Positions 1-64,000 of a stretch of DNA of 64,000 nucleotides are shown here, piece by piece. The first letter of the stretch is position 1, and the number at the start of each line of letters is the position of its first letter. Source of the DNA: Chitinophagaceae bacterium (GTDB lineage Bacteria > Bacteroidota > Bacteroidia > Chitinophagales > Chitinophagaceae). Below the pieces are notes generated by a model, which saw only the letters and a list, made by a program, of their open reading frames with translations, was not told the origin of the DNA and did not search any database. The translations under genes and the position numbers were made by a program. The stretch covers positions 368 to 64,367 of the forward strand of contig PSMD01000009.1 of assembly GCA_040289925.1 (NCBI GenBank), read 5' to 3'.

Positions 1-2338
1 CATCAAAAATAGCTTTCGTCAAATCATTCATTACATCAGCTACAGAATAACTATTGCCATATAAACCTGTGTTATTAATACGGGCCTTTGTTACCGGGTG
101 TAAAATAAACCCGAGCACATTTAGCTGAATGGCCATTACATTATTTTCAATCTTTGGATCCTCCGGATTACCAAAGAAATTATAACCACGGCGTTGTAAT
201 TGCAGGTAAGGGAAAACCTGCGCATCAGCATCAAAAGCGTTGGGTGCAAAAACATATTTGCTCAGCAAGTCCATTGCTTTCTTTTGCATGGTAGCAGGAA
301 CAGGTGTTAAAGGTTTATTACCCGAGTTTTGCTGCGGAAAACTTCTGTCAACATAAATACCGCCAATATAGCGGCTAACTGCACTGGCCATACTGTTTCG
401 CTGGCCATTTAAAGTTCCGTAACGGGCTGTTAATTCCTGGTAAGATTGACCATTTTTTGTGTACTTGGTTTTCAATTTACCCATCAGGCTGTTTACGAGC
501 TTAAAACGATCATCAGCATAAGCTACCATATCATTACTTTGGTCATTGATCATTACACGTGGATCTACCCCATTACCGTAGCTTCTCATATCATCAGCAT
601 CATTACCAAAAGCAAGTTTGGGATCATTACTGCGGGATAAAATTTTGTTTAGCTCAGCTTCTTCTGCTGCTTCAGAGAAAGGAGTATATCCATATTGAAT
701 AGCCTAGATATCATAAGGACCAACCTTTGTCGTGTAATAATCTCCCTGGTTATTTCTATCTGAAGAAACATTGATAGCCGGATAGTCCATTACCGAACTC
801 TGCAAGCCAATTGTACGGGTAATTGATGTATTATTCATTTCTGCAGGCGAAAGCATTTGGCTGGCCTTCATGTTATGGTTCAATCCCATTGTGTGGCCTA
901 TTTCATGCAAAATCAGGTAATACAAAAACTGTTTGTGCATTTCGCTGATCTCTTTCGGGTCAGCGTCAGTTGCATCCAGCACGGTAAGGCCTGTAGTAAA
1001 CTGTGCTTTCAGTTCCTGTGCCAGTGTGCAGGTTTGCCAGTGTTTTTTATTGTTGGCAGAAAGGAACAGAGAGGTTGAATCTTTTTTTGTTTCTCCAATA
1101 GCAGTGTAGCTATTATATAATTCATCTTGTATTGGCGTAGCACTACCGCTGAACCATTCTACAGTAATATCAGCTCCGAGGATTTGTCCGGTTCTTGGAT
1201 TTACAAAGCTGGGCCCGATAGCTCCGTACGGAGGATAGGGAGAAGAAACCCAGCGAATAACGTTGTAACGAATATCAGCAGGGTCTCAATCAGCATCATC
1301 AGGCATTATCTTCATCACAACTGCATTTTTAAAACCTGCTTTTTCAAAAGCTTCATTCCATTTTTCACCGGCTTCTTTAATAGTTTGCCGGTATTCAACA
1401 GGTGTTGTGTTTTCTATCCACCAAACAATAGGTTCAACCGGTTCGCTAATTGCAGCGTTCGGATCTTTCTTTACTAAACTCCAACGATTGATTACATCTT
1501 TATAATCCGCCACTTTTATTGAAGTAAGGTTTTCTATTTCCTGCGAGAAATAACCCACTCTTGGATCATCCTTTCTTGGTTTGAAATCGTTTTTCGGCAT
1601 TTCAATAAATGAATGCTGAAAGCGAATGCGGTTGTAGTGGGCATCCGTAATATCTTTTCCACCGCCATTGAAAGGCGCAGGATTTTCGTAGGCGAGTTCA
1701 ACAACGATAAACGATATCTGTGTTGTTTGGGAAGGAACGTACCTTGCTGTACTTTGATTTGGCTGTATTTAAATTACCAAGATTGAATACAGCACCCGGA
1801 GGCAAACCCGGAGGAAGAAGAGGGCGAACCGGGTCAAGCTTTTCACTTAAAAACAGCGCATCACCATTAATGAGATAACCTGCAGAATCTTCACCAGCAA
1901 TTTTATCTGAGTAAAATACCGCCTCAGTTACATCAACGTTTGCAGCTTTGCTAACTGCATTGTTTTTGTCGTAATAAAAATTGGTGTTCACCTGGCTGAA
2001 TTCCAGCTTGACGTAGGCTTTTTTAATTTGAAAAATAAAAGTTGTCCGAATCATGTTCTGGTTTAAGAAAAGGCTGGTAGGCCCACCCATGGAAAAGCTC
2101 TGGTAAATGAATTCTTTTCCAAGCTGATTTTTCTTTACATATAATTGCATGCTACCATTTACGGTATCCTGGTAAAGAGTAAAAAGACCTTCCGTTTTTT
2201 TGCTCGTTTTTACTTTGTCTGTAATACCAGCAGGTTTTTTGCTTTGCTGGTATCCGCTGGCATAGTTGGTTTATCCTGTGCTGATGCTGCAAGCATAAAA
2301 CAAAATGCAGGCACCACCAGGATAAAAGTTTACTTCAT
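1..2338 (-). pseudogene. Secreted zinc metalloprotease (met-zincin, DUF4953/DUF5117-like by memory), multiply disrupted; C-terminus runs off the left edge
   Basis: HEXXH motif HEIGHTMGLNHN in ORF 704-982. Signal-peptide-like N-terminus after ATG 2336-2338. A coherent protein reads through TAA 2330-2332, TGA 1286-1288, TAG 704-706 and two frame changes (~2235-2240, ~1715-1740), and stays open in frame down to position 1. Confidence 0.8.
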
Positions 2339-2443
2339 AAATAAAACAGTTTAAGATATACAAAATACGCAGGTTGAACAACCCGCCGAAAAATAAAATA
2401 ACCTTTTGACAGGGTTTGTGATAAAAGGCCTAAAAAGATGATT

Positions 2444-3700
2444 TTACTTAAGCTTTTTCAGTTTAACGCTTTCAATGCGGGTTTCACTGACATTGATAAT
2501 GTCAAACTCATAATCACCAATAATAATACGCTCTTTCTGGCGGGGTATGGTTTCGTGATAACTGATGATGTAACCCGACAAAGTTTCTGATTCGGTTACG
2601 GGCAAATCAAAATCGTATTTATTATTCAGGTAATCTACTTCAAGTCTTCCTGAAAAAATGTATTCGTTTTCTGCAATTTGCTTTTCAATAAATTCTTCAG
2701 CATCGTATTCATCTTCTATCTCACCAAAAATTTCTTCCAGTACATCTTCCATGGTAATGATACCTGCTGTGCCGCCAAATTCATCTACCACCCAGGCAAT
2801 GCTTTTTCTTTCTTTGTTGAATTTGCCGATTAAATCGGCAGCACTCATACTTTCGGGTACAGCCGGTATAGGATGAAGAATGGAACCGATATCTTTTGGA
2901 TTTTTAAACAAATCAAGCTGGTGAATATAGCCAATGATGTGATCAATGTCTTTTTCAAAAACTAGCAGCTTGCTTAGCTTGGTATCAATAAATTTTTCTC
3001 TGGCCTGCTGAATGCTACAATTTACATCAATGCCTACAATTTCTTTACGTGGCACAAGGCACTGGCGAATTTTAGTTTTGGGCAATTCCAATGCATTTTC
3101 AAAAAGCTGTGTGTTTAACTCTTCTTTTTCATTGCCCAAATCCCTGCTTTGCTGAAAAAGATGATCCAAATCGTTACGGGTAAGGGCTGCTTTTTTTTCG
3201 TTATACCGAACGTTGAATAAATATTTCAGCATCCACTCGGCCAGCTTTATTAAAGCTGATGCAATGGGATAGAGCATTTGGTAAAATAAATCAATTACAA
3301 TAGCCATCCGGCTTAACATGGCATTGCTCCTTGCCCTGAAGAATGCACGGGGAATAAACTCTGCAAAAAAGATGACCACAAAAGTAGCTACGGTGATTTC
3401 AACGAGAATATGTACCGTATCGGAACCAATGCGCCAGGATTGCCACAAGGGCCGCATAACATTGCCCGCCTGCAGTGCAAAAAACACCAGAAAGATATTG
3501 AAGCCAATAAGCGTTGTGCCTAAAAATCGTACGGGAGATTCAACAAACTGGGCTAATAATTTTCCGGAAGTGGTGCCTTGTTTCTTTTTTAATTCAATGC
3601 CCAGGCGGTTGGCAGAATAAAAAGCCATTTCAATACCTGCAAAAAAACCCATTAATAGCAGGGTGATCACAAACCAAACTATTGTTTTCCACTCAATCAT
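2444..3700 (-). CDS. CNNM/HlyC-CorC family membrane protein (DUF21 TM domain + CBS pair + CorC_HlyC), paralogue of GldE
   Basis: 418 aa intact ORF with N-terminal TM helices. Conserved VVDEFGGTAGIITMEDVLEEIFGEI block shared with ORF 6211-7557. TAA stop. Confidence 0.85.
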   Translation of the reverse strand: MIEWKTIVWFVITLLLMGFFAGIEMAFYSANRLGIELKKKQGTTSGKLLAQFVESPVRFLGTTLIGFNIFLVFFALQAGNVMRPLWQSWRIGSDTVHILVEITVATFVVIFFAEFIPRAFFRARSNAMLSRMAIVIDLFYQMLYPIASALIKLAEWMLKYLFNVRYNEKKAALTRNDLDHLFQQSRDLGNEKEELNTQLFENALELPKTKIRQCLVPRKEIVGIDVNCSIQQAREKFIDTKLSKLLVFEKDIDHIIGYIHQLDLFKNPKDIGSILHPIPAVPESMSAADLIGKFNKERKSIAWVVDEFGGTAGIITMEDVLEEIFGEIEDEYDAEEFIEKQIAENEYIFSGRLEVDYLNNKYDFDLPVTESETLSGYIISYHETIPRQKERIIIGDYEFDIINVSETRIESVKLKKLK

Positions 3701-7557: not shown

Positions 7558-7686
7558 TTCAGTTTTTGTTTTTGTGAAACAATAATCAAAGCCCTATTTG
7601 CTTAACAGGTGGGGCACGTCATAAGGCCTACCCCTGATTGTTTGCAAATGTATTAATGAATCAGGGTACAATGCCATGCATGTTAT

Positions 7687-11692: not shown

Positions 11693-11749
11693 AAGGATGA
11701 AACCATTTCTTTTATTAAATTTCATAGCAGAAACCATTAAACTTCTGCT

Positions 11750-12374
11750 ATGAAAAAATTTTTAATATCCGGCCTGATCATTTTCTGCTACATTACAGCC
11801 TTTGCTCAGTCTAAGTGGGGCATCAGTTACAGCCCTGCATTTCCTATGGATCCTCGTGTACGGTTTGCCGTTCAGCCAGGGGTTGAGTGGGCCTTTAATA
11901 AAAAGCTTTCATGGTTAAATGAATTTGCCTTTACACTTCCCAGAAAAAAAATTCTTCTTATTATGATCGCAGATTTTTTCGGATAAAAACAGAATTACGG
12001 TATGATATATTTCCGGAACCGGAGAAATTCTATTGGCTTTGCAATTATCTTATGCGTGGCGAAGTTTTGATGAGCTGAGAAAGAATTATTTGTTTTCTGA
12101 CCAATACCGGGGTGATACCGCTTTGTATTTTGACCGTGCCCATGTTTATAGCCCAATATTTATTGCTGCAGCCAACCTTGGTTATCTGATTCATTTTTCT
12201 AAGAGTTATCATTTGGATATTGAAGCCGGTTATGGTAAAAAAATTACACAAACCAGTTATAGCAAAGTGGTCAATCCCCAGGCGGGCTATTATCAAATTC
12301 CAAATGATGCTTCCATGATTAATACTCTCGATCTGCATTTAGAACACAGGAAAAAGTTGAAGGCCCCTACATAA
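11750..12374 (+). pseudogene. Small outer-membrane beta-barrel-like protein, frameshifted
   Basis: Signal peptide MKKFLISGLIIFCYITAFAQ. The reading frame changes at an A8 run (11944-11951) and again near 12025-12035. The three pieces join into one plausible alternating-hydrophobic protein. Confidence 0.6.
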
Positions 12375-12418
12375 GCTTTGCTGTGCGATTGATTTATCGC
12401 TTTGCTGAACATTAATCA

Positions 12419-12426
12419 TATTTTTG
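12419..12426 (+). promoter_or_regulatory. Bacteroidota -7 promoter box (TATTTTTG)
   Basis: TAnnTTTG match 18 nt upstream of the psd ATG at 12444. Confidence 0.35.
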
Positions 12427-12443
12427 TTCTCCAATTTTTTTTA

Positions 12444-13342: not shown

Positions 13343-14038
13343 TCAAAAAATCTCCTCCAATTCTTTCAACGAATAAACGGTGTACGTAGGCTTAATTTCA
13401 GGTTGAATGCCCAGATGATTTACAAATACCTGGTCAATACCTGCATTCATCGCTCCAACAATATCCACTTCAATGCTGTCGCCAATCATAATACATTCTT
13501 CTTTGCAGGTTCCGCATTTTTCAAAAGCGAACTCAAAGATCTCTTTGTTAGGCTTTAAGCTGTTTGATCCTTCTGAAGTGATCACCTCAGTAAAAAAATC
13601 TTTTAGTCCTGAATACATCAGCTTGTTGTGCTGGGTTTGCTCAAAGCCATTGGTGATAAGGTGCAGCACATAATTCTTGTTCACTAAATACTGCAACACC
13701 TCTTTTGCATACGGAAACAAGATCGTTCTTGTAGGTAGCAGTTCTAAAAACCGTACGCTCATTTCTTTTGCCAATTGCTCGTCGGCAATCTTAAAATCCA
13801 GCAAAGTCAGCCACATTCTTTTTACCCGCAGCTCTTCCTGCTTAATGTAACCGTTGCGGTATCGCTCCCACAATTTTTCATTGTGAGCCAGGTAATTTTT
13901 ATGGAAGAGGTCAAAATCATGCACACCCTTTTCTTCCAGTCGCAGTGTTTCGTGAAGTTCAGATAAAGTTTCCCGGGCGTTGGCTTCAAAATCCCAAAGG
14001 GTGTGGTCAAGATCGAAGAATAAGTGCCGGTATTTTAT
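13343..14038 (-). CDS. HAD-superfamily hydrolase (YjjG-like nucleotidase type), apparently lacking a canonical start codon
   Basis: The frame is open upstream of the track ORF and encodes I-KYRHLFFDLDHTLWDF (HAD motif I). There is no ATG/GTG/TTG between the upstream stop (14084-14086) and GTG 13922-13924. ATA at 14036-14038 sits where Met is expected. Confidence 0.7.
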   Translation of the reverse strand: MKYRHLFFDLDHTLWDFEANARETLSELHETLRLEEKGVHDFDLFHKNYLAHNEKLWERYRNGYIKQEELRVKRMWLTLLDFKIADEQLAKEMSVRFLELLPTRTILFPYAKEVLQYLVNKNYVLHLITNGFEQTQHNKLMYSGLKDFFTEVITSEGSNSLKPNKEIFEFAFEKCGTCKEECIMIGDSIEVDIVGAMNAGIDQVFVNHLGIQPEIKPTYTVYSLKELEEIF

Positions 14039-14041
14039 TTC

Positions 14042-14111
14042 AGATTGCAGATTACGGATTTTAGATTTGTGAGAGATCAGGATTCAAGCTGCAATCTACA
14101 ATCTTAAATCT
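14042..14111. repeat. 7-bp-phased AGATT array followed by an inverted AATCT array
   Basis: AGATT/GGATT occurs at 14042, 14049, 14056 and 14063 (plus GGATT at 14080). The complement AATCT occurs at 14093, 14100 and 14107. The whole 79-bp divergent HAD/SDR intergenic region is built from this motif. Confidence 0.55.
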
Positions 14112-20259: not shown

Positions 20260-21219
20260 ATGCGCTTTCAAAAACCTGTAGAGGCAAAATGGATAGCTGA
20301 ATTTTTGAATGCCGAATTAGTAGGCGAAGCGGAAGCAGAAGCAACCGGCATCAATGAAATCCATAAGGTAGAAAAAGGAGATGTGGTGTTTGTGGATCAT
20401 CCAAAATACTATGATAGATGTCTGAATTCAGCGGCCAGCTTTATCATCATCAATAAAAAACTGCAACCTCCTGCCGGTAAAACTCTTTTTGTAACTGAGG
20501 ATCCGTTTGAAGCATATCAAAAACTGGTGAATCATTTCCGGCCTTTCCATCCTTCTATGAAAATGATGAGTGAAAGCAGCACCATTGGCGAAGAAACTGT
20601 GATAATGCCCGGTGCCTACATTGGCAATGAAGTGAGGATTGGAAAAAATTGCATTATTCACCCGAATGTAACCATACTTGACCACTGCCTGGTTGGTGAT
20701 GATGTAGTAATACAAGCCGGCAGTGTAATTGGCAGCGATGCATTTTACTACAATAAAAAAACGAACCACCCCATTCACTATAAAAAAATGAATAGCTGCG
20801 GCCGGGTAGTGATTGAAGACGCAGTAGAAATTGGCGCAGGCTGTACTATTGACCGTGGCGTGAGCAGCGATACGGTCATTGGTGCAGGAACTAAAATTGA
20901 CAACATGGTGCATGTAGGCCACGATACAGTGATTGGCAAAAACTGTTTGATAGCTGCACAGGTTGGCATTGCCGGAGCAACTACCATTGAAGACGAAGTG
21001 ATTTTATGGGGGCAGGTTGGTGTTAGCAAAACACTTACCATAGGTAAAGGTGCGGTGTTGCTGGCGCAGAGTGGCGTACCGGCATCATTGCAGGGTGGCA
21101 AAACTTATTTTGGTTCACCGGCAATTGATGCAAAAGAAAAAATGAAAGAATTAGTTTGGGTAAAAAGAATTCCTGAATTATTCAAAGCTGTTTTTGGCAA
21201 TGAAAAAACAGCCGGCTAA
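20260..21219 (+). CDS. lpxD: UDP-3-O-acylglucosamine N-acyltransferase
   Basis: 319 aa. N-terminal LpxD-type domain followed by left-handed beta-helix hexapeptide repeats (IGKNCIIHPNVTI..., IGAGTKIDNMVHVGHD). Confidence 0.85.
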   Translation: MRFQKPVEAKWIAEFLNAELVGEAEAEATGINEIHKVEKGDVVFVDHPKYYDRCLNSAASFIIINKKLQPPAGKTLFVTEDPFEAYQKLVNHFRPFHPSMKMMSESSTIGEETVIMPGAYIGNEVRIGKNCIIHPNVTILDHCLVGDDVVIQAGSVIGSDAFYYNKKTNHPIHYKKMNSCGRVVIEDAVEIGAGCTIDRGVSSDTVIGAGTKIDNMVHVGHDTVIGKNCLIAAQVGIAGATTIEDEVILWGQVGVSKTLTIGKGAVLLAQSGVPASLQGGKTYFGSPAIDAKEKMKELVWVKRIPELFKAVFGNEKTAG

Positions 21220-22295: not shown

Positions 22296-22323
22296 ATGCA
22301 GGTTAAAGATAAGCTGCAACTGT

Positions 22324-24988: not shown

Positions 24989-25737
24989 TTAAAAGCCATA
25001 ACCGAGGCTAATGCCAAATGCACGAACGCCGGCAAAAGGACCGGTCAGCTTTGCATCAATTGTATTGTTGCCAACTGTTGCATCAATCTTCCACATCGGT
25101 ATGTCAATGCTCTCAATATCTTTTTCCCGGTCTTCTTCATCCTGCTGTGTTAAATCGCTCATGTCATCCGTACCATGAAAATCAGCTTTCATACCACCGA
25201 TAAAAGGATCAACAATAAACCAATCGAGAGTATCATTTTTACCAAGTGCCCATTGTGCACCCAGCATAGCACCGCTACCAAAATCATTAAACTTGCCTTT
25301 GACGTTTGCTACCTGCTTTACACCATTGCTTGGCATGTATTCATAATCCTGGTCGAATGACATATGCGTAAAACGGGCAAATGGAGTTAGGTACAAACCA
25401 ACCGGGGCACCTTTTTTACCAAAATAAAATCTGTACTCAGGTGTTACAGTTATTTTGCTGAAGGTGGTTGACTCAATGGCTTTACGGGCATCATCGTTTC
25501 CGCCAAACTGATCAAGCAAAGTGCTTTTAAAGGCAGGCCAACGTTTGGTGAAACACCTAAGCCAATAGCAAATGAATGGCGGTTGCTGATTACATGTTCA
25601 TACTGCAACTGGTAATACTACACCGCAACAGATGTCAAGTTAAATTTCAAGATGTTTTTGCCTGAGACATTGATGTCCTGCGCAAAAACAGCAGCAGTAA
25701 ACAGGCAGCCGGCAATAGGGGCGAACGTCTTTTTCAT
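24989..25737 (-). pseudogene. Outer-membrane beta-barrel protein, disrupted
   Basis: Signal peptide MKKTFAPIAGCLFTAAVFAQ from ATG 25735-25737. In-frame TAG at 25618-25620, then a frame change around 25520-25560. The C-terminus ends ...SLGYGF, an OMP-type terminal Phe. Confidence 0.65.
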
Positions 25738-35224: not shown

Positions 35225-35698
35225 TCAGTCACCTTCAGGAAACGTTCCGAAAAATACCTTGAAGGTATTGCCGCGATAGTGGCGGGCAAATTCTTCCGAC
35301 GTTTGAGAAAACACCTGGTCCCGTGTATTTGAATAGTGGTAAATCGTATTGCCAAAGCAAATCCCCACATGTTTCTACGGTATGTTCACCATTCGCTTTG
35401 TTACCAGATTAACAGTCGGTGCTTTTGTAATAAAAGCAAGGCAATCGCCTGATGGTTTGTCCTTCCACTCGCCAACCTGCGGGCAATGCGCAGATAACTC
35501 ATGCACACGTATCGTTGCACCATCGCCAGCACTCTGCCCCGAATGCATTTTACAGGTATAGCCAAAGTGATAACCCATTACATGGCTTACAAAATGTGCA
35601 CAGTGGTTATCTTCATCATGCACATAACTATTGCCGCAAATGCTGCTGATGTTTAAGTGAAGTAATCCATGAAATAATTCAAGGCTTAGCTGCGCCAT
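35225..35698 (-). pseudogene. NlpC/P60-superfamily (papain-like) cysteine peptidase/amidase-like protein with an in-frame amber codon
   Basis: Candidate Cys motif NHCAHFVSHV. In-frame TAG at 35375-35377, two codons before KHVGICFGNTIYHYSN, which resembles the NlpC/P60 HVGIY..G....H block. The same frame runs to TGA 35225-35227. No signal peptide. Confidence 0.55.
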
Positions 35699-42988: not shown

Positions 42989-44139
42989 ATGCTTTTGATG
43001 AAACGGCTGCTGCCGGGTGTTTTTTTACCCTTATCTCTTCAATCCGTAGTTGCACAATCAGCTTCGGTGCAGCAACAAGCCATTATTTTAAAAAGACAAA
43101 TAGAAAGAACGCATTACAGCCCCTGGCCGGTTGATGACAGTCTTTTTTCTACCATTTTTTCAACGTTCATCAAATTGCTCGACCCACATGAAAACATCTT
43201 GCTGGCATCGGATGTTACACAGCTTTCTGCTTTCCGTTACAAATTAGATGATGAATTAAATGGAAAAAGCTGGCAGTTTTATGACCTGGCCTCTTCTGTT
43301 TACCAAATAGCCTTGAAAATAGCAGACAGCATCATCCAATTCAAGCGGAAAGGTTTCTTTTTTAAAAAATTCGAACCGCGGAACGATATATGACGGACCG
43401 CTGGTGATATTAATAAATGAAGAAAGTGCGTCTGCATCTGAAATGCTGGCGGCGGCTTTGCAGGATTATAACCGGGCGGTAGTAATCGGCAGAAATAGCT
43501 ATGGCAAAGCAACCATGCAAAAAATGTTTCCGCTTGATACCGTTCAGGCAAACACCACTGATTGCCCCTACGGTTTTGTAAAAGTTACAACAGCAAAGCT
43601 TTACCGCATTAACGGAGAAACCATTCAGCAAAATGGCGTGCAGCCGGATGTGGCCCTGCCTGATGTTTTTGATGGGCTGGAATACTGAGAAAATTTTTCT
43701 CCGAACGCCTACCATCCGATACCACGAAAAAAAACAGTACTACAAACCGCTTTCTCCGCTGCCTGTTACCCAGCTATCCACTGCCCGTTACAACCGCATT
43801 CTGCAAAGCAAAAAATTTAAGGCAATCAAAAACATTATCCACAACCGTTCTAAATTGCTGAAGGCCGCATCAACCACTATTCCATTGCAACTCGATGCAT
43901 TTGAAAAATGGGCCAGCGAAAATAATTTTGATGAATTGGATGAAGATGAGATTTCTGAAGACTCAAAATTATTCAAAGCAGAAAATCACCAGGCCGAAAA
44001 GCAAAGACTGGCTCTCAATATTGCCTCAAAAACTATGAACGAATACACTTTGCAAACGATACAGCAGGACATTTATATTGAAGAAGCATTCCGTGTTCTG
44101 CTTGACCTGGTTCAACTACAAAAATCAAAAAACCATTAA
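42989..44139 (+). pseudogene. Tail-specific (S41, Prc-like) protease remnant
   Basis: Signal peptide and N-terminal Prc-like region. The protein then jumps directly, and out of frame, at ~43350-43392 to DGPLVILINEESASASEMLAAALQDY, skipping the PDZ and upstream catalytic region. In-frame TGA at 43686-43688. Frame change at the A8 run 43727-43734. Confidence 0.75.
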
Positions 44140-44149
44140 ACAAAGCTTT

Positions 44150-45180
44150 ATGAAGCATCTCACTAGAACTTCTCTGCTGACTGTTGCATTCTCGCTGTTC
44201 TTTTCGGGAGTAAAGGCACAGGATTTTCAAAATGCAGAAGATTACATGAACTACAGCAGTTTGGCCGATGAAAAAAATACTGCCATTTATTTCAGTTATC
44301 TCAGCGCAATGGCACATAATAAAAGTGCAAGAAAAGTGTAGAAGCGCAGACAGGAAACGATCAATGCCATTTTTCATACCCGTGTTAACATTGAGGGCAT
44401 GCCGCCGTGGAAAGGCGACCGTTCTTACCGCAATTCATCAGTAGCTTACCTGAAACTTGTTTACCATGTTTTTAATGAAGACTATGGAAAAATTTTAAAC
44501 CTGGAAGAAATTGCAGAACAGAGTTATGATGCTATGGAAGCTTAGATACTTGCACAGCAAAAAGCACGGGAAAAACTGCAGGAAGCAGGAGAAAAGCAAA
44601 GGCTGATACAAAAAGAATTTGGTGCAAAATACAATGTAAATATTGTGGATGTTGAAGATGCGCTTTCCGTAAAAAGCAAACAGGCACAGGCACTGATGAA
44701 GCATTATAATGAGGTTTACCTTATCTTCTTCAAGCCGCACAAGCAGGAAGGCTACCTGATGGAAGCCGTAAATTCAAAAAATATTATTGCCATTGAGCAA
44801 AGCAAAAGTTCCATTAAAAAATTTGTTGAAGAGGGACTGGAAAAGCTTAGGCAATTAAAAGGATATCAAAACGACCCTTCGCTCATTAATGCCTGCCGCG
44901 ATGCTTTGAACTTTTTTAAAGATGAAGCCCGGCAAATACAGGCTTACACAGATTTTTACATAAAAGAAGAAAATTTCAATAAGCTGAAAAAAATTTTGAA
45001 AGCAAATCAAAAAAACAACAACAGTATATTGACCAGTATAATAATGGCGTAAATGAGTTTAATGCGGCCGTTAAAGACTTTAATAAATTAAACAACAACC
45101 TCAACAAACAAAGAGACCAGATGTACGACGCCTGGAATAAAGCTGTAAAAAATTACCTGGACAATTACATGCCGGTTTAG
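44150..45180 (+). pseudogene. Secreted hypothetical protein (coiled-coil-rich), disrupted
   Basis: Signal peptide MKHLTRTSLLTVAFSLFFSGVKAQ. One frame runs from 44150 to ~45010 and is interrupted by TAG 44339-44341 and TAG 44543-44545. A frame change at the A7 run 45009-45015 leads to a tail that ends at TAG 45178-45180. Confidence 0.6.
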
Positions 45181-45197
45181 AAAAAGCAATAACTCTT

Positions 45198-46043
45198 TTA
45201 AAAAGTTAGCTTAGCGCCAAGGGTAGCATAAAACATATTCTTTGCCCGCTCGGAGAGGTCTGGCCGGCCTTCAACCTGAACAAGATTTTGTGGAATAACA
45301 TATGCAGGTGTTAACAGCACCTGCAATTTTCCTTTGGCGTAAACCACCGGCACTGAAAATTCATAAGACAAAATGTTAAAATTTTTTACCGATTCAGAAA
45401 CCTGTTGTTGCACGCCGGGAAACAGCAGGAAATTACTTTGCTTGTAATAAGTATTGGTGAATTGTTGCGTGCCCGCAAAAACATAGGCTGAAGGATCAAC
45501 TACCAGCACAGATTTATCAGCAAATTGCTTACGATAAATATGATCAAGGCCTGCCGTCAGGCCATAGTCAACTTTATCGCTGAGTTTTACATCAGCACCG
45601 CCGGTTATATTAATTATTTTATTGAAACGGCTTAACGAAAACGCCAACTGCCCTTTTAAGGCTGATTGCACCAGTTGTGTTCCCTTCTCATAAAATGGCT
45701 TCAGTCCATAGATATTTGTCAGCCATTTTTTATCATCACTCATAAACTGAAATCCCGCCGTGGCTACCGTGCCTGCATAATCAAATGAAACAGATGCATT
45801 GTTTACGAACACGGGTGAGGCACTCAGGTAAAATGTTTCGTTGATCCATAATTCTGCTACGGGAAAAACGCCACTGCTGCGCAGGCTATCGGTACGGCCA
45901 TAATAGTTCAAATGAGAATTATAAAAAGTGCCGATCTTAAATTGAACCAGGTCTTTTTTTGTTTCAGAAGAATCGATTTGTGATTTTGCCTCATAAAAAA
46001 ATAAAACTGAAGCAAACAGAATGGAAGGGATTCGGGGTTTCAT
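45198..46043 (-). CDS. Outer-membrane beta-barrel protein of unknown function
   Basis: Signal peptide (start moved to ATG 46041-46043), alternating-hydrophobic strands, and a C-terminal ...LGAKLTF. Confidence 0.55.
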   Translation of the reverse strand: MKPRIPSILFASVLFFYEAKSQIDSSETKKDLVQFKIGTFYNSHLNYYGRTDSLRSSGVFPVAELWINETFYLSASPVFVNNASVSFDYAGTVATAGFQFMSDDKKWLTNIYGLKPFYEKGTQLVQSALKGQLAFSLSRFNKIINITGGADVKLSDKVDYGLTAGLDHIYRKQFADKSVLVVDPSAYVFAGTQQFTNTYYKQSNFLLFPGVQQQVSESVKNFNILSYEFSVPVVYAKGKLQVLLTPAYVIPQNLVQVEGRPDLSERAKNMFYATLGAKLTF

Positions 46044-46107
46044 ATATGGTTGGTTTAAAAAAACCATCCCGACAATTGCCGGGATGGTATATGTCGAAGG
46101 TTACGGA

Positions 46108-46764
46108 TTATTGCTTAGACGCTTTCACTGAAGTTTCGCTTTTTACTTCTCCTTTTACAGAGCTACTTGCTTTTGTTTCTTTTGCTTTGTCAACGGTGCT
46201 TTTAACACCGGTCTTTACTTCACCTTCAGCTTTTGCTTCTACTTTTTTTGCAGATTCAACAGTGGCAGAAGCTTTCTTTTCCGCAGTTACTGTTGCATCA
46301 GTTGTAGTTTTTTCAGCTTTATCAATTACTGCACCGCCATTTACATTTACATCCGCATTGGCATTTGCGGAGCTGCTGCCATTTACAGCAGCATTTGAAT
46401 TGCCATTGTCTGCACTGCCATTTGTTTCAGCCGAACCAGATACACCAACACCTGCATTTACATTTGCACTGTTCTTTGCATCATTTTTTATTTCTGTTGC
46501 AGTGTTAACTGTTTTTTGAGCGGAACCTTTTACAGTTGCACTTGTTTTTGAAGCAACGTTTGTTGCTTTGTTAGCTGATGCATTTACTGTTGTTTTTGCT
46601 GCATTGCTGGTTGCTGTTACAGCTTTTGTAGCTGTAGTAGCATTTACGGTACTATTTACTACGGCCTGTGTTGTTGACTGAACACCTAAATTAATTTGGC
46701 CGAATGAAATTGCAGCAGCTGAAATTGCTACCATCAAAAGCATTAATTTACGGATTGTCTTCAT
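46108..46764 (-). CDS. Secreted low-complexity A/T/S/N/V/K-rich protein
   Basis: Signal peptide MKTIRKLMLLMVAISAAAISFGQ, then about 195 aa with almost no aromatic, Cys, Pro, His, Trp or Met residues. The C-terminal third is K/E-rich and quasi-repetitive. Confidence 0.55.
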   Translation of the reverse strand: MKTIRKLMLLMVAISAAAISFGQINLGVQSTTQAVVNSTVNATTATKAVTATSNAAKTTVNASANKATNVASKTSATVKGSAQKTVNTATEIKNDAKNSANVNAGVGVSGSAETNGSADNGNSNAAVNGSSSANANADVNVNGGAVIDKAEKTTTDATVTAEKKASATVESAKKVEAKAEGEVKTGVKSTVDKAKETKASSSVKGEVKSETSVKASKQ

Positions 46765-46955
46765 ATATCCTTGTTTTTTTGGTTAAGAATGGTTTGGTTG
46801 CTCACGGTTTTGAAAACATCGTGCCAAACATTTTAAAAATTTTGGTTGATTAATTTTTTTGTGGTTCGTTACTGCACATGGTGGAGTGGCTTGCAGTGTA
46901 TTAAAGACCAAAAAACTGTTAACGAAGTTTAAACGCCAGTCGGAAATTTTTTGTA

Positions 46956-47570
46956 TTAATGGTAATGGCGATATGAAGAAATGTTACGTAAAATAAAATC
47001 ACTGTCAGCCGGCTGTTCTACTGTCTGTACATTAACCAACCCTTTTATACCGGCATAATCTCTTGCTGAACTATATAAATAATCTTTAGGCAGAGAAACA
47101 ATCCGGTCACGAACCGGATTAGTATGAATATGATCAAGCTGCTCATTTACCAAATCAGTATTGTCAAGATCAATATAAACCGGGTTAATGCTGGTTTGCC
47201 AAACCTGGTATTTATTCAGCAGCTTTAATGAACGGCTGGCTTTTTCAAATCTTTCCAGTATCCATTTACGCCTTACCTCGGTTTCTGCATCTATATCTTC
47301 TAAAATAATTCTGCCTGTGAATTTTTTAAAATCATGCGCAATTAATGAAAGTCCGTAGCCCTGCTTTGCCTGGGCCATTAAATGAAGATGGTTGCTCATG
47401 AGGCACCATGCATATACTTTCAATCCTTTTTTTTCTATGAAATAATTTAGCGACTCAACTATGATTTGCTTAAATACCGGCCGAATAAAAATATCAATCC
47501 AGTCAACAACATTAAAAGTCAGGTAATAGCAGGCCTGCTGTTGTGTGATAGTGTTTTCGTCATGTTGCAT
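46956..47570 (-). CDS. IS200-like Y1 HUH transposase homologue, REP-associated tyrosine transposase (RAYT)-like
   Basis: HUH motif in MSNHLHLM, a C-terminal Tyr region (YLYSSARDY), 204 aa. No tnpB partner and no obvious terminal hairpins. Confidence 0.7.
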   Translation of the reverse strand: MQHDENTITQQQACYYLTFNVVDWIDIFIRPVFKQIIVESLNYFIEKKGLKVYAWCLMSNHLHLMAQAKQGYGLSLIAHDFKKFTGRIILEDIDAETEVRRKWILERFEKASRSLKLLNKYQVWQTSINPVYIDLDNTDLVNEQLDHIHTNPVRDRIVSLPKDYLYSSARDYAGIKGLVNVQTVEQPADSDFILRNISSYRHYH

Positions 47571-47709: not shown

Positions 47710-49870
47710 TTACATTTTTATAAGTTTATAAGGCGGAACATATTCTTCAAATAATTTGGCAGCGTTGAACTCTGCCTTAAAGCTGTCATCCATTTCTCTC
47801 CAAAAACTTACCCAGTCAATATTTTTATCGGCCAGAATGTAGTTGTTTAAATGGTTGAGCAAAGGATCATTAACGGCCATTGAGCCCACTTGTTTTGAGG
47901 CTACGATATGAATGTCAGGATTGATGTCCATAATCTTTTTCATGTTCTTATAACCACAACAGGAGCCAAGGACGGCTATTTTATTATATGGCTGCAGGTA
48001 TTTTAAGGTGTTTGGCAAATGATAGCTATGGCCACGATGAATTAAAACAGAAGGCTTGATATTGTTTTGCTCAAGGTAGGCCATCAACGCTTTTTGCGCA
48101 GCAATATCTTTTTCATCTTCATTATTCAGCGGCAGGTTGGCAAATATTTTCAGCGGCTGCCCCTGCAGTGCGCTGATGCTTATCCACTGATCGTTGGTTT
48201 CCACTTTCCACTTTTTCTCATCTTTAAACAAGTTCATAAAGCTGCGGTAAGAATTTTTGCCATCATCATCTCCATAAAATAAAACCAACTCTGTAACCGC
48301 ACCATTATTATCTTTTAATGCAGAAACCGGCATGGCTTTATAACTTGCCGATACGTCGCTACCCTGCTGGCGGTTATTCACCAAATCATATACTTGCTGA
48401 AGAATGGAATAAAGGCGGCCGGCCTGATAAAGATTATTGCGCCGGGCTTTTTTCAATCCTGTTGCCAATTCTTCCTGTAAATACCCATTTAGCGTTTCAT
48501 CTTTTGAAAGAGAAATGAATGCATCAGCAATGTCTGTAGCATCAGCTACCGCTTCGTCTTCATCATCATCTTCAATATCGGTAATAAACATATGGACCAG
48601 TTGCCGGCTTTTTTCTGCAGGTATGTGATTTAAAAAATCAGGCAGAGTATTATAAGTAGCGGCCACCCTCATAAATTTTCTGAACTTATCGTAGTGCACA
48701 AGGCTAAATAACGAGTCTGCTGATCGCTTACCGAAAGAGGCTAAAAGCCGTTTGTATAAACCCAGGTAGGATGAGGTGTACATTTCTTCATCAGCAATAA
48801 CAATGATGTAATAAATATCCTGTGGCCGCAGGCCATTTACCGAAGCAAACCGTGTAGCATCCGGTGAATTATGCAGATCATTGATCTTTCTTACATAAAA
48901 CGAAAGTGCTTTTTCTGAAACGGCATTTCTTAAAGCTTTTTGCAATTGCGGATCTTCACCATTTTCTTTCTTTACTTCGTTAGCCATTAACTGGTCAACC
49001 AGCAATTGGTAATATTCAGTAACTTTTTTCCGCTTGTCTAAAATTTCATCTACCGCTACAATGTTATCAGCAATTTGCTCTGCAAAGGGGGCCAGTTCGG
49101 TTGCCAGCGGGTTAGCCGATATAGCCACTAGTTGTTTCACCAGTTTATTATTGCTATTACGGATGCTTTCGGTTACCAGATTATTGTGTTGCTGAAAATA
49201 GGCTGACTAATTTATCCGGATAATTTTTTGCCATAAAGGCCAGCAAGGAGTGGGTATAATAAAAATCTTTTTTGTTTTCAAGAAAAGAAAAAATGTATTC
49301 AGGAGTTTTTACTACCCGCTTATAAGTGCTGATGTCGGCCATGATTTTTTTCTCATCAAACTGCTAAAAAGCATTTGCAAGCATTTGACTACTGCGCCAT
49401 CCAATGCCTTTAAATTGTTTTTCCAGCGATTCATTATTCATAATCGCTGTTAGGGTTTGCCTGTATTTTTTAATGATCTCAGGAACTTTAAATTCATTAA
49501 ACTCTTTACCCTCAAGCCTTGTTCTTAGCTCTTTCAGAAAAAAAGAAATACTGTGAATACCTTTTGCTCTTTTGGCAACAGGGGCAGTAACCAAATGCGC
49601 CAGGTTGTTTTGAATTTTATCAATATCAGTGCTAATAAATTTTAAAATCTCTTTGCGGATGTTTTTATCAATTGAAGCTTTATTTAAAAAATCCCTGAAA
49701 TTTTTTTGCTCGGTATTTACCAGTTGCTGGGCTGCTTTTATTTCATTCTCATCTTCATAAACTATTTCATCTGATGATTTAAAAGAAAGTTGGTATGCAA
49801 ACGTTTGTGCCTTTATATGGGTAGAACACCATAACAGGGATAAGAGACCTAATTGAAAAACTTTTTTCAT
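47710..49870 (-). pseudogene. Large secreted protein (~720 aa reconstructed) with a C-terminal caspase-like His/Cys signature, disrupted
   Basis: Signal peptide at 49870. In-frame TAG at 49364-49366 and a frame change around 49181-49210. The C-terminal domain has strand-His (SVLIHRGHS) and strand-Cys (IAVLGSCCGY) motifs. Confidence 0.6.
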
Positions 49871-52292: not shown

Positions 52293-52353
52293 ACGATGGG
52301 TGCAAGTTAGTTTCTCTGTCTTGATTTTGAATATAAATTGATGGGTTAAACAA

Positions 52354-52546
52354 ATGGAAGAATATATCTATTTGGGTGATCGCTATACTGACGCTGCTTT
52401 GAAAGGAAAACCGCGTTCGGCAATACGAAAAAAAAGGCAAATGCATACGGGGCAGAAATGGAAATATGCTGGTGAAATTTAACGGTGGAAACCTGCAGAT
52501 TGTTACTGCAAGTCTTTTATGAAAGCTAAAACCTCCTACAAGTAAA
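52354..52546 (+). pseudogene. Mini-ORF (~63 codons) split by an A8 run
   Basis: MEEYIYLGDRYTDAALKGKPRSAIRKK reads on as GKCIRGRNGNMLVKFNGGNLQICYC... only if the A8 run at 52428-52435 is shortened by one base. Weak support. Confidence 0.25.
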
Positions 52547-52693
52547 GATCTCTGCAGCTTGTTGAAAAATTAACAAGCTCCGCCCACTAATCAATTGGGT
52601 TGCCCATTTATCCAAATCAAATTTGCCAAAAAAATTTTCTGTTGAAGTTTACGATGGTTTTCGTATTACAGGTATAGCCAAAATCAATTTATC

Positions 52694-54283
52694 ATGAAAC
52701 AAATTTTAGTCTTTGCCGTCATTATCTTTTCCATATCGACGGCAGCGCAAAACAAAAAAGCAACCATTTCAGGAACTGTAACAGATAGTTCCCAATCGAC
52801 ATTAATGTATGCTACAGGTAGCCTTTAAAAGACCGCACAAACTGAGCCGCTTAAAATAACTTATACCAATGATAAAGGCGGCTTTAAATTAGCTGGAGTT
52901 GATAGCGGGAGTTATCGGTTAGTGGTAAGCCACACCAGCTATAGCGATTACAAAGAACAGCTAAATTATAGACGGCCAGGATGTGCAGCTAAATGCAATT
53001 AGCTTACAAAGCAGCGCAGGCCAGTTGAAAGGAGTTACGGTCGTTGCAAAAAAACCGCTGATTGAACAAGCAGACGATAAGATTATTTATAACGTGGAGA
53101 ATGACCCGACCACAAAAACAGAAACAGCAATTGATATTTTGAGAAAAACACCCTTTGTAAGTGTTGATGGAGACAACAACATCCAGGTAAATGGCCAATC
53201 AAATTTTAAAGTGCTATTGAATGGAAGAGAAACCGCCATATTTGCACAAAACGTAAAAGAAGCACTGAAAAGTTTTGCCGGGGCATTCATTGTAAAAATA
53301 GAAGTGATCACCAGTCCTTCTGCTAAATACGATGCGAAAGGCGTAGGTGGCATTATCAATATTATTATCAGGAAAAAGTAAAAGGATATAATGGCTCCAT
53401 CTCATCACATGCCAGCACAAATAAGTACAGAAATGTGAACACAAACTTCAGCGCAAAATTTGGCAAACTGGGTATTACGGTTAATTATGGTGCCGGTGGC
53501 AATTTCAACCTGAAAGGCTCCAGCTCATCTGTTACCACACCCCATGCTCAAACTTCTTATACAAAAAGAGAGTTGCGTGGCCAAAGAACAATGCCCAACT
53601 TCTGGAATTTTGGCAACGCTGAATTGAATTATGAATTGGATTCTTTGAATACAATCAGTACTTATGGAAACATTGGTGGCGGCAGCAATTGTACAAAGCT
53701 TGAGCAAACCATCATCACCGATTATCCTTCGCAGCCATCCAGTACCAGCTTTTATAACCTGAAAAGCAAAAACAACTATCCAAACATCAGCACCGGCCTT
53801 GATTTTATTCGCAAATTTTCAAACAATAAAGAACGTGAATTCAGTATCCGGCTTAATGGAGAATTTGCTGATGCAAATACTTTACTCCCTACTTCACAAC
53901 TAAACCCCGGCACAGACCGCTTTATTGATAATTGCAGCATTGCCGGAAACAAACAATACACTATACAAACCGATTATGTGCATCCATTAAAAAACAATCA
54001 AACCACTTACCCTTTAAATTACTAGTATGGCATTGGAGCCGGTTATAAATTATTTAATGAGAAACTAACCCTAAGCCAGATGGCATCCAACTGCTTAAAA
54101 AAGGATAACGACTATAAGATGACAATCAGAGACCCCAATTTTGAAACAATAACTTCAACCACTTTCCCCTTTCGTGGAGTAGCCCTGGCTATAAGCTGAA
54201 ATTTTGGAAAGCTGAAAGAAAATGATTCAAAAAAGAAGGGTGTGAATAATGACGATTTGTTGGGAAACGGCCAGAATAATTAA
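52694..54283 (+). pseudogene. TonB-dependent-receptor-like outer-membrane protein (CarbopepD_reg + plug + barrel), heavily decayed
   Basis: Signal peptide, ISGTVTDS... regulatory-like domain, and a plug-like region (DILRKTPFVSVDGDNNIQVNG). Lesions are TAA 52826-52828, frame changes near 52960 and 53375, TAG 54023-54025 and TGA 54197-54199. About 530 codons, where I would expect about 800. Confidence 0.7.
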
Positions 54284-54310
54284 GAAAAATAAAGCCGGAA
54301 AATTCCGGTT

Positions 54311-54665
54311 TTATTTTTTAGGCCTCTCCTGCTGAGGCCAGCCATCCTTCTTTTTATTTCGTTCATTTCTTTCGCTATCTACTGACGGATCTGTTTCACC
54401 TCTTTCCCGGGCTGTAAAATTCACATGCTTATCGCGATTGGCTTTTGCAAATGTATCCAAATGCCTGTCTTTCGGTTTTTTCATATTGCTTATTTTGATG
54501 AATCGGTAATCCGTCATTCATTCTTTCATAACTCACTATATCACTTTTCTGCCCGCTCTCATCTTTTGTTTCAACAATTGTTTCCTCCTGTTTACTGCTG
54601 TTTTGTTTACCACTATTGGTACAGGCAGAAAATATAAAACAGAATATGCTTAACCACCTCAGCAT
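54311..54665 (-). pseudogene. Small lipoprotein, frameshifted
   Basis: Lipobox FIFSAC. Two overlapping ORFs (54429-54665 and 54311-54517) join into one charged, Lys/Glu-rich protein after a 1-nt shift. Confidence 0.5.
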
Positions 54666-54732
54666 TACCTCTGGTTTTTGTTTGTATGACTGTGTACGGA
54701 AGTATCCATTCTTAAATTAGTTGTTGTATCAG

Positions 54733-54876
54733 TTATACTGCTGCCAGGCCGGTGTCGGTAATTGTTGAGTTTGCGTTTGTATTGATGCTGCTGTCTGTTG
54801 TTGTGCTTTCGCTCCCGCTGTTGTTACAGGCTACCATAAACATGGCCAATAAATAAATAATTCCCAGCTTTTTCAT
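54733..54876 (-). CDS. Very small putative lipoprotein (47 aa)
   Basis: MKKLGIIYLLAMFMVAC lipobox followed by a Ser/Thr/Asn-rich tail. Below the track size cut-off; translated by hand. Confidence 0.35.
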   Translation of the reverse strand: MKKLGIIYLLAMFMVACNNSGSESTTTDSSINTNANSTITDTGLAAV

Positions 54877-54990
54877 AAACGTTGCTTTTAGGGATCGAAT
54901 AAAGATTAACAAGCATAGTTTATCAATTATGCTGCCATAGAAATCTTTCCTAATAAACTAAAAAGTAGAAAAAGCCAATGAGCCTGCCGC

Positions 54991-61956: not shown

Positions 61957-61965
61957 GATGTAAAA

Positions 61966-62439: not shown

Positions 62440-62493
62440 ATTTCGGATTTCCGGTTTAGTCCCGATATACCCGGATCGGATTTATGATAACCG

Positions 62494-63408
62494 CTACTGA
62501 CCTCTATCCGCCCGGAGAGTAGATTGCGGGGTGGGGCTTATATAAAACATTACCGGTTCACTGCTCGCATCTCCGTTCACATTTCCGTCATTCAGCGGCC
62601 GGCGTTGGAAATCTAAACTTTGAATAGCCCAGATAAACCGGCGTGTATAATTTATTTCTTCCAATTTTCTCAATGAATCCTTTTGAACAGGTTCGCCGTC
62701 ACAACAACTCATGGTTAAGCTGCCTGTGGGCTCTACCCGCAAAACCCTGATTGATTTTATACCGGCAAGAAAAATTTTCCCATTTACATATTCTGCCGAT
62801 ACAGCTTTTCTTCCGTTTGCCACTGAACCAATCAGCCGGCCATTGTTTACATAGCGAAAGCTGTCTTCACTAAACATGATGAGCTTGCCGGGCTGGTACT
62901 CCACAATTTTTTGTGGAATGCTGTAGCGACCGCTAATGAAATTTTTTGCAATGCTTGTTCTTCCATCTTTAAAAACAAAAAGATTTCTTTCATTGTTACA
63001 AAAAATGATTCCGCCAAAGCTCAGCACGTTGGCCATGTGTGTATTTCCCAATTGCACTTTTGCCAGCTCGGCATCTGTTTCTTCATTGACAAAGCGATTT
63101 TTTTTTGAAACAAAATAACAAGGTGAGCGGCGGAAAGGAATTGTCCAGATTGTTTTGTTGCTGTCAATAAACAAATCAATCACTTCATTATCCGTCAAGC
63201 CGGATGAAATGGTATAGTTCTCAAATTTTTTTCCATCAAACCGGGCAACTCCGTTTTCGGTGGCTATCCACAAAAAACCACGGTTATCTAAAATGGTTCG
63301 GTACACAGAATTGGAAGGCAGGACATCTTTGACCGTGTAAATAATTGTTTGAGAGAAAAGAGCCGGGCAGCAAATAGCAGATAGTATGGTCACAAACAGC
63401 CACCGCAT
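62494..63408 (-). CDS. Secreted beta-propeller-like protein (two-component-regulator-propeller type), possibly truncated
   Basis: Signal peptide. The motif RGFLWIATENGVARFDGKKFENY resembles the Reg_prop repeats found at the N-terminus of much larger sensor proteins. It ends after 304 aa, next to recX. Confidence 0.5.
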   Translation of the reverse strand: MRWLFVTILSAICCPALFSQTIIYTVKDVLPSNSVYRTILDNRGFLWIATENGVARFDGKKFENYTISSGLTDNEVIDLFIDSNKTIWTIPFRRSPCYFVSKKNRFVNEETDAELAKVQLGNTHMANVLSFGGIIFCNNERNLFVFKDGRTSIAKNFISGRYSIPQKIVEYQPGKLIMFSEDSFRYVNNGRLIGSVANGRKAVSAEYVNGKIFLAGIKSIRVLRVEPTGSLTMSCCDGEPVQKDSLRKLEEINYTRRFIWAIQSLDFQRRPLNDGNVNGDASSEPVMFYISPTPQSTLRADRGQ

Positions 63409-63494
63409 ATTACTAAAATAGAAAAACTGGGGCAGAGTAACTATTGTTACGATTGAAACCTATCGTGAAGTTTGAAAACGGTAAAGTGAGAAAG

Positions 63495-64000
63495 CTATTC
63501 TTCCAGTCTTTCCAGGCAGCCAAATTCTTTTTTCAGAATGTGATCGTATTCATCTGCTTTTTTAAATAAGGTTTGAAATGTTTCTACGCCGCTTTCTTTG
63601 GTCATGTCCAAATCATAAATCACACTGGAAAGAACGATGTTTTGTTTTACACAACTGAGCACCATGCCCCGCATTTGATAATTTTTTTGCAGCAAAAACT
63701 GGTAAGCGGTTTTATTTTGGTGGCATCAGCAGGTAATTGGCATAAGTAAGCATCGCCTGCAATAAAATAATTCTCCGGGTTGTAATTAATCTTGATCTTG
63801 GCAGAGCCTTCTTTAACGCTCCAGGTATTTTGTCCTTCACGGGCCAGTTTAATATCCTTACCCAGTTCTTTTAAAATTTCTTCAATGGTTTTTGCAACAC
63901 CAACCGGTTCGGCTTCTTTCTCCGGCATTTCAGGCAACTTTAACTCGGTTCCACAACTGGGGCAATATTTTTTTGAGTCAATATTAGCCGGCGTTACCAA
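63495..64000 (-). pseudogene. YbjN-like (putative sensory-transduction/chaperone fold) protein with N-terminal Cys pair, frameshifted; runs off the right edge
   Basis: ORFs 63647-64000 and 63495-63695 overlap in different frames and join around the T7 run 63682-63688. The N-terminal part contains CPSCG. Confidence 0.5.

Follow-up and report, generated by a model that had tools for sequence, protein, structure and literature searches.

The stretch of DNA analyzed here (64,000 nucleotides of contig PSMD01000009.1, assembly GCA_040289925.1, from a Chitinophagaceae bacterium; hereafter, the window) contains a set of broken genes that sequence comparison identifies as genuine unitary pseudogenes, with intact single open reading frames (ORFs) in related soil Chitinophagaceae. 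There are 9-11 such loci against 48 intact genes, that is, 15-19% of the genes, slightly below the one in five estimated in a preceding sequence-only reading of the window, and proteins exported via the Sec pathway are over-represented among them. We infer, with a probability of roughly 0.6, that this decay reflects relaxed selection on accessory exported functions combined with drift in a small, isolated population. The following seven loci are confirmed as broken:

1..2338, minus strand: secreted met-zincin metalloprotease pseudogene (DUF5117 + DUF4953), with the C-terminus beyond the window edge
35225..35698, minus strand: pseudogene of a small Cys/His-motif protein of ~155 amino acids (aa) without a signal peptide ('NlpC/P60-like'), recognized from its homologues
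42989..44139, plus strand: tail-specific (Tsp/Prc-like) S41 protease pseudogene, recognized from the orthologue in contig L089 and Pfam
44150..45180, plus strand: LIC11966-family surface protein pseudogene, recognized from the L089 orthologue and NCBIfam NF047958
47660..49870 (47710-49870 in the sequence-only reading), minus strand: pseudogene of a conserved secreted protein of ~720 aa with no assigned function, recognized from its homologues
52694..54283, plus strand: CarboxypepD_reg + OMP_b-brl_3 outer-membrane receptor pseudogene, recognized from Pfam
63495..64000, minus strand: trypsin-like serine protease with a C-terminal zinc ribbon and YbjN-like domain, recognized from its homologues; the gene continues past the window

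This DNA derives from a population of uncultured Chitinophagaceae in the 65 °C fumarole soil of Tramway Ridge. Proteins encoded in the window were found, with identical sequences, in two ENA assemblies (ERZ1673965 and ERZ1673966), in the JGI metagenome 3300003453, in which contig names have the form 'ERB_...', and in the Logan contigs of SRR6519253, an Illumina run from 65 °C fumarolic soil at Tramway Ridge, Mount Erebus, Antarctica (PMC11657696). The same material yielded two medium-quality Chitinophagaceae metagenome-assembled genomes (MAGs), ERB_2 and ERB_3, with a G+C content of 40.5% and 39.3%, respectively (PMC11657696); that of the window is 40.4%. The nearest genomes by UvrD are all from Chitinophagaceae, namely an uncultured MAG (79%), a Flavitalea MAG (77%) and Parafilimonas terrae (74%), and the forest-soil contig L089 is closer still (85%; L-numbers, such as L065, L088, L089, L096 and L106, denote the related loci and contigs that were compared with the window). 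The gldD, gldE and gldH genes found in the window are consistent with Bacteroidota. In a uvrD-centred synteny comparison of 80 GTDB genomes, the neighbourhoods were little conserved and contained no intact orthologues of the broken genes, with three shared neighbours detected in L013 only. Metagenome loci centred on dusB supplied orthologues of a HAD-family hydrolase (see below) and the adjacency of cdsA and psd, and contained no orthologues of the metalloprotease, gldE or the small outer-membrane protein (OMP). The ORF density of the window relative to 74 related loci is blind to decay, given that big pseudogene fragments are still counted as ORFs.

All in-frame stops listed in the sequence-only reading were verified in the window (TAA 2330, TGA 1286, TAG 704, TAG 25618, TAG 35375, TGA 43686, TAG 44339, TAG 44543 and TAG 49364; in the outer-membrane receptor gene, TAA 52826, TAG 54023 and TGA 54197), and the frame changes that it named are visible in three-frame translations. 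Comparison with orthologues or other strains identifies W, E, Y, R and W as residues formerly encoded at the stops. Sequence similarity runs across the lesions: single Pfam stretches span stops, and tblastn pieces abut in differing frames. For seven loci, single uninterrupted ORFs of relatives span the full reconstruction, the evidence being weaker for two OMPs; the relatives thus have single ORFs rather than the same pieces as conserved split genes.

In the metalloprotease gene, a TAA occupies codon 3 (2330-2332), followed by frameshifts at ~2240 and ~1706, TGA 1286-1288 and TAG 704-706. The Pfam profile DUF4953 matches over positions 6-310 of 316 without a break across TAG 704, DUF5117 matches over 7-189 of 189 across the second frameshift, and the reconstruction is colinear with intact ORFs of 858 aa (L088) and 861 aa (L065), which confirms the locus as broken. 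The fragments of this gene are called identically in ERZ1673965, ERZ1673966, the JGI assembly and the Illumina Logan contig.

In the NlpC-like gene, TAG 35375-35377 occupies codon 108, directly ahead of a conserved KHVGI...HYSN motif. An exhaustive search with the 107-aa N-terminal fragment yielded 212 homologues, mostly of 145-170 aa, which match residues 7-107 and then run ~48 aa past the fragment. In these homologues, the codon that corresponds to the TAG encodes K, R or Q, and the in-frame sequence downstream of it in the window matches their C-termini, which bears out the inactivation of the gene by this stop, common to ERZ1673965 and ERZ1673966. Because no Pfam or NCBIfam family covers the gene, the label 'NlpC/P60-like' derives solely from the Cys/His motifs, and a PDB sequence search with the reconstruction produced no useful match. 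The same domain is also found as 9-20 tandem partial matches in giant proteins of 1,200-2,450 aa (P0240, P0283, P0314 and P0365).

The S41 protease gene and its neighbour decayed side by side. The former has lost ~308 internal codons, contains TGA 43686-43688 in place of an Arg codon and shifts frame in an A8 run at ~43725, as had been claimed; the 698-aa syntenic orthologue in L089 aligns as residues 19-117, 426-570 and 562-698 in three frames, the Pfam matches comprise TSP_NTD (3-84 of 188), S41 (78-164 of 165) and DUF3340, and the lesions are common to ERZ1673965. In the neighbouring gene, which likewise is broken in the manner predicted, TAG 44339 replaces a Glu codon and TAG 44543 a Tyr codon, and the frame shifts in an A7 run at ~44985; residues 9-281 of the 349-aa L089 orthologue align over both TAGs and residues 269-349 in another frame, and the NCBIfam NF047958 match crosses the stops. 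The gene content of the interval 42857-47570 varies, with ArsC, an AsmA-like 808-aa gene and DAO present in L089 and all lacking in the window.

For the gene at 47710-49870, TAG 49364 (formerly Trp) and the frameshift at ~49203 are corroborated by more than 100 intact homologues of 690-760 aa (identity up to 76%) and by the 718-aa syntenic L089 orthologue, whose residues 25-205, 205-697 and 696-716 each match a different frame. In addition, we detected an 8-bp tandem duplication at 47717-47724 (TTTATAAG twice) that removes the last 21 codons in the window strain only; missing in two other assemblies (L001 and L002), it is a third lesion in an already dead gene.

The outer-membrane receptor gene contains TAA 52826, frameshifts at ~52975 and ~53378, TAG 54023-54025, which reads TGG in the JGI assembly, and TGA 54197, and part of the barrel length is missing. 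The Pfam CarboxypepD_reg domain crosses the first stop, PF14905 matches over positions 220-406 of 408 across TAG 54023, with too few residues left to accommodate positions 1-219, and weak matches to the TonB-receptor plug were found as well; the earlier description of this locus, including the missing length, thus holds. Finally, the locus at 63495-64000, described initially as YbjN-like, is indeed broken, by a 1-bp deletion at ~63704 (tblastn passes from frame -1 to frame -3 at about 63700-63713), and its identity is revised: it encodes the C-terminus of a trypsin-like protease. The reconstruction is covered end to end by 119 homologues (70-83% identity), each a single ORF and many with trypsin domains, and a split into 315 aa and 66 aa is called in three other assemblies; a PDB sequence search with the YbjN-like reconstruction gave no useful match.

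Could these lesions come from consensus errors, due to low coverage or 454 reads, or from strains collapsed into one MAG? The coverage of the contig is just ~5x, 454 data were also used for some assemblies in the Tramway Ridge study (PMC11657696), and two of the frameshifts lie in A7 and A8 runs, so that there is a resemblance to the frameshift artefacts of 454 and low-coverage MAG sequences. Against this, the four other datasets, which jointly cover all 64,000 bases at 99.7-99.98% identity to the window, contain the same lesions: in a base-by-base comparison, made at the level of assemblies that derive from only two soil samples of one site, the listed lesions are common to the other assemblies bar three strain-specific differences (TAG/TGG at 54024, the 8-bp duplication at 47717 and TAG/CAG at 7596). 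The stops and indels are therefore not assembly errors. They recur in the SPAdes-style contigs of the two ENA assemblies, in the JGI assembly and in the Illumina Logan contigs, and the other contigs carry their own single-nucleotide differences relative to the window. Moreover, unlike homopolymer artefacts, 11 of the lesions are base substitutions that create stops and one is a ~0.9-kb deletion, most of the broken genes contain several independent lesions, and the core genes on the same contigs are clean. Altogether, a technical origin is very improbable.

Even less credible is continued expression of these genes through recoding (stop read-through or reassignment, or programmed frameshifting) or homopolymer phase variation. 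Two observations speak for it: TAG is the most frequent in-frame stop (6, vs 3 TGA and 2 TAA), and two poly-A-tract frameshifts are located in surface-protein genes. Nevertheless, all three stop codons are found in frame, the intact genes end in TAA 28 times, in TGA 11 times and in TAG 9 times, the in-frame TAGs stand for four different amino acids, and the 64,000-nucleotide window contains no tRNA genes, including suppressor tRNAs. Reassignment of TAG in particular was rejected on account of the three stop types in frame and the 9 intact genes that TAG terminates. In the genes shifted in poly-A tracts, reversal of the shift would leave other nonsense mutations or a large deletion in place and so would not restore them.

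Four further loci are probable pseudogenes or possible gene remnants:

11750..12374, plus strand: small outer-membrane protein, probable pseudogene, with the signal peptide in one frame and the body in two others
24989..25737, minus strand: DUF3575-type outer-membrane beta-barrel protein, probable pseudogene, with TAG 25618-25620 and a frameshift at ~25525
52354..52546, plus strand: mini-ORF with a possible frameshift at ~52435 (two short overlapping frames)
54311..54665, minus strand: pair of overlapping short ORFs, one of which encodes a lipoprotein signal (frame translation)

The pieces in three frames that the sequence-only reading attributed to two frameshifts in the OMP at 11750-12374 are present; the gene itself is only a probable pseudogene, judging from the colinearity of the reconstruction, over both junctions, with an intact 235-aa ORF in L096 that contains a signal peptide (24% identity over 173 aa, E 1e-13 in a pairwise comparison). 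No Pfam or NCBIfam family was detected for this protein. The locus fills a 750-bp insertion (11693-12443) between cdsA and psd, whereas the gap between these genes in relatives is 3 bp in L102 and L106 and ~40 bp in L104. Similarly, in the OMP at 24989-25737 the TAG and the frame change are real and common to ERZ1673965 and the JGI assembly, and the gene is probably a pseudogene: the signal peptide and the C-terminal barrel (ending ...GYGF) are in separate frames, a weak Pfam DUF3575 match (E 0.005), the sole family match in Pfam and NCBIfam, crosses both lesions, and over the C-terminal half 34% of the residues are identical to those of a Hymenobacter volaticus protein annotated as DUF3575. 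The mini-ORF is possibly a frameshifted gene: a 64-aa gene occupies the same divergent position by uvrD on the contig of P0002, and no match to the mini-ORF was found in Pfam, NCBIfam, plasmids (tblastn) or the compared loci of relatives. For the ORFs at 54311-54665, possibly a gene remnant, there was no family or homologue in Pfam, NCBIfam or the loci of relatives. The entire 2.7-kb region between uvrD and msrA (52293-54990) consists of remnants, namely the mini-ORF, the receptor pseudogene and three short lipoprotein-like ORFs, one of which, at 54736-54957, is a Ser/Thr-rich ORF of 47 aa; in relatives, the uvrD-msrA interval contains genes for an AI-2E transporter, Smr and msrB instead.

Another locus that had been listed among the broken genes does not belong there:

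13343..14038, minus strand: HAD-family hydrolase with ATA at the orthologous ATG position, judged intact (Pfam HAD 1-191 of 191)

The ATA was observed correctly: among 12 orthologues, ATG occupies this position in 8, the start lies a few codons elsewhere in 3, and L106 has ATC. The 231-codon ORF is intact in both the window and L106, with a nonsynonymous divergence (dN) of 0.17, compared with 0.17 for psd and 0.15 for dusB, indicating purifying selection. A non-ATG codon shared with the diverged L106, together with the intact ORF, implies that the change predates a deep split and that purifying selection persisted after it. The ~45 nt upstream of the ATA/ATC (a 15-codon leader) are nearly identical between the window (13990-14083) and L106 (961-1060), although synonymous sites elsewhere are saturated between the two. 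Most likely, the hydrolase is translated from a non-canonical start, to which the upstream stretch, resembling a conserved leader, would be tied. A candidate for an additional casualty, gldE, was rejected. TAG 7594-7596 (minus strand) is found in the window only, with CAG in ERZ1673965, ERZ1673966 and the JGI assembly, where gldE is called with a length of 486-488 aa and the codon falls 25 codons into the call. All of the match to the GldE model TIGR03520 (positions 2-408 of 408) lies downstream of this TAG; the long call thus probably begins too far upstream, and the change is probably harmless.

With the HAD gene counted as intact, pseudogenes span 17.5% and intact coding sequence 76% of the window, and the housekeeping genes are intact, as originally noted. 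For the analysis of export we used ten casualties that are confirmed, probable or plausible, with the mini-ORF included and the lipoprotein ORFs at 54311-54665 left out. Sec signal peptides, called by hand inspection of N-termini, are present in 7 of these 10 and in 11 of the 48 intact genes (Fisher's exact p=0.007; p=0.018 with confirmed loci only), and the bias disappears (p=0.15) if inner-membrane proteins are also classed as envelope. The intact genes comprise 11 with Sec or lipoprotein signals, 11 for inner-membrane proteins and ~26 for cytoplasmic ones. Among the exported genes, 61% are still intact, namely gldD, gldH, batD, genes for a beta-lactamase-family lipoprotein, a CarboxypepD_reg protein, an Asp-protease/PDZ protein and two hypothetical proteins, msrA, and genes for a second S41 peptidase and a Reg_prop protein. 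The bias is thus moderate and concerns exported proteins: the enrichment of the casualties for Sec-exported proteins stands, whereas the stronger statement that almost all of them are secreted or envelope proteins does not, given that the NlpC-like gene, the trypsin/YbjN protease and the mini-ORF lack signal peptides. Three of the casualties are proteases. Two of the 'intact' exported genes are short for their families (a 304-aa Reg_prop gene at 62494-63408 and a 367-aa CarboxypepD_reg-only gene at 21216-22319) and could be truncated remnants, which would raise the exported casualty count. In practical terms, gene callers cut the broken loci into 2-4 'hypothetical proteins', which inflates gene counts and masks the loss of several proteases and OMPs in published MAGs.

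The explanation that we favor would work as follows. A shift into a hot, geographically isolated fumarole niche would relax selection on accessory exported functions, and drift in a small founder population would worsen the loss; the authors of the Tramway Ridge study argue that the site was colonised via single-clone founder events (PMC11657696). The genes were inactivated by ordinary point mutations that turned Trp, Glu, Tyr and Arg codons into stops, by 1-bp slippage, in some cases in A7/A8 runs, by the 8-bp duplication and by the ~0.9-kb deletion. The losses fall mainly on exported proteins that the cell can do without, namely proteases acting outside the cell or in the periplasm, small barrels of the outer membrane, the receptor-like barrel and surface proteins. 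Genes for central metabolism, for replication and repair, for the synthesis of lipid A and phospholipids and for the gliding/type IX core are all intact. This scheme retains part of the sequence-only reading, which ascribed the decay to relaxed selection after a lifestyle change: the decay is genuine and the exported bias is present, but two of the lifestyles it proposed are not supported. Laboratory passage is excluded because the source is environmental DNA, the sequence matching metagenomes of the 65 °C fumarolic soil of Tramway Ridge.

The other is restriction to a host or an obligate association. An early stage of genome reduction in a bacterium that depends on another organism, for example on cyanobacterial mats or a eukaryotic host, and sheds surface and secreted functions for which it has no further use would account for the high local density of pseudogenes, the intact coding fraction of just 76% with housekeeping genes retained and the skew of the losses towards exported proteins, and thick cyanobacterial mats, which dominate the surface, and abundant Mastigocladus are found at Tramway Ridge (PMC11657696). 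Yet we consider such a lifestyle quite unlikely. There is no host signal in this bulk soil sample; all matching sequences come from fumarolic soil metagenomes, which leaves room for a microbial partner. No expansion of insertion sequences is seen: the window contains one Y1_Tnp gene and no other transposase among the Pfam annotations. The G+C content of 40.4% falls inside the 36-47% range of 22 related loci and so is not shifted, the intact genes include gldD, gldE and gldH of the gliding/type IX set, those of a two-component system and of xanthine dehydrogenase and many for exported proteins, and the flanks beyond the window look normal. The Y1_Tnp gene (IS200/REP-associated type, 46956-47570) is found in the same syntenic position in at least four free-living relatives and behaves as a resident gene. 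The alternative that deserves the most attention, although we regard it as unlikely too, is that the genome is ordinary and the window a local hot spot where dispensable, fast-evolving accessory surface genes, several of which are insertions specific to the lineage, are in normal turnover. In line with this, the OMP at 11750-12374 interrupts a gene pair that is contiguous in relatives, some relatives have the S41 gene and its neighbour and others do not, the region 52293-54990 is a graveyard of genes, with other genes in its place in relatives, and flanks totalling ~16 kb (8-10 kb on each side, reconstructed from the other assemblies) encode ~20 genes with at most 1-2 doubtful spots (near 0-10%). 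However, the ten casualties are scattered (at 1-2, 12, 25, 35, 43-54 and 64 kb) rather than confined to one island, some of them are single-copy genes conserved in the family, for which over 100 intact homologues exist, and even with the flanks included ~13% of the genes are broken, well above the 1-5% that is usual for free-living bacteria. A further decaying gene may lie in the left flank, just beyond the window, represented by ORFs of 37 and 75 aa in L176 (15048-15455) vs 44 and 108 aa in L178 (5384-5860).

Several considerations weigh against relaxed selection combined with drift as the cause. Given the cleaner flanks, the window may be locally enriched in decay and have been noticed because it is extreme. 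The S41 gene and the gene for its 349-aa neighbour are absent from L171 and L013 and hence are dispensable family-wide rather than specifically in this niche. The export enrichment depends on small numbers and a hand-made signal-peptide call, and accessory genes for exported proteins tend to be lost first in any bacterium, so that the bias alone is no indicator of a lifestyle change. The other assemblies, from two samples of one site, exclude assembly error but not locality; the decayed lineage may be confined to that site. Finally, the small population and the arrival of the lineage in this niche are presumed.

From general knowledge, the closest parallels are the niche-restricted genomes of Mycobacterium leprae, Sodalis glossinidius, Salmonella Typhi, Yersinia pestis and Burkholderia mallei, which, like the window, contain many in-place unitary pseudogenes with multiple lesions, intact housekeeping genes, an over-representation of surface, transport and secreted proteins among the losses and a lowered coding density. 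Unlike these, the window comes from geothermal soil, with no host, insertion-sequence bloom, G+C shift or visible biosynthetic loss, and the decay is known here for 64-80 kb only, not for a whole genome. With the turnover of accessory genes in free-living Bacteroidota it shares the nature of the casualties, namely DUF3575 and OMP_b-brl_3 barrels, met-zincin, Tsp and LIC11966-like proteins, the presence of which varies among relatives; it differs from ordinary turnover in that ~15% of the window genes are affected, with up to five lesions per gene, and in that several of the broken genes are conserved across more than 100 Chitinophagaceae assemblies.

The broken genes evolve as unconstrained sequence. 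Sites at which the other assemblies differ from the window are 2.2-fold denser in the pseudogene spans (23 of 72 unique sites in 17.5% of the sequence, p=0.002), and this higher density, which sequence free of constraint is expected to show, is seen in every dataset taken singly. If ~4% of random substitutions create stops, the ~11 nonsense substitutions in ~9 kb of confirmed pseudogene would correspond, as a rough estimate, to a few percent of neutral divergence since inactivation, perhaps an order of magnitude above the present diversity of the population (0.02-0.26%). The presence of several lesions in most of the genes implies that unconstrained drift has lasted far longer than the age of the present population, and the extra lesions that differ among co-occurring strains imply that decay is continuing.

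Pseudogene accumulation is textbook material for host-restricted bacteria and has seldom been documented in free-living environmental populations. The broadest version of our explanation, that a free-living bacterium on a microbial 'island' is undergoing the drift-driven decay normally seen only after host restriction, seems improbable at present. If true, geographic isolation and founder bottlenecks alone can drive pseudogene accumulation in an environmental bacterium, and the lesion load could be used as a clock of the residence of the lineage. Should the whole genome resemble the window, the Tramway Ridge Chitinophagaceae would offer a natural test of isolation and small population size as causes of decay, one that bears on the question of endemism raised for this site. 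Taken by itself, a real pseudogene cluster is a fresh example of a known phenomenon and is notable only if a whole-genome count shows general decay.

The co-occurring strains also differ by in-frame indels of 15, 6, 6 and 9 bp, at 353-367, 52709-52714, 56889 and 63348, respectively, two of which lie within the intact GT2 and Reg_prop genes.

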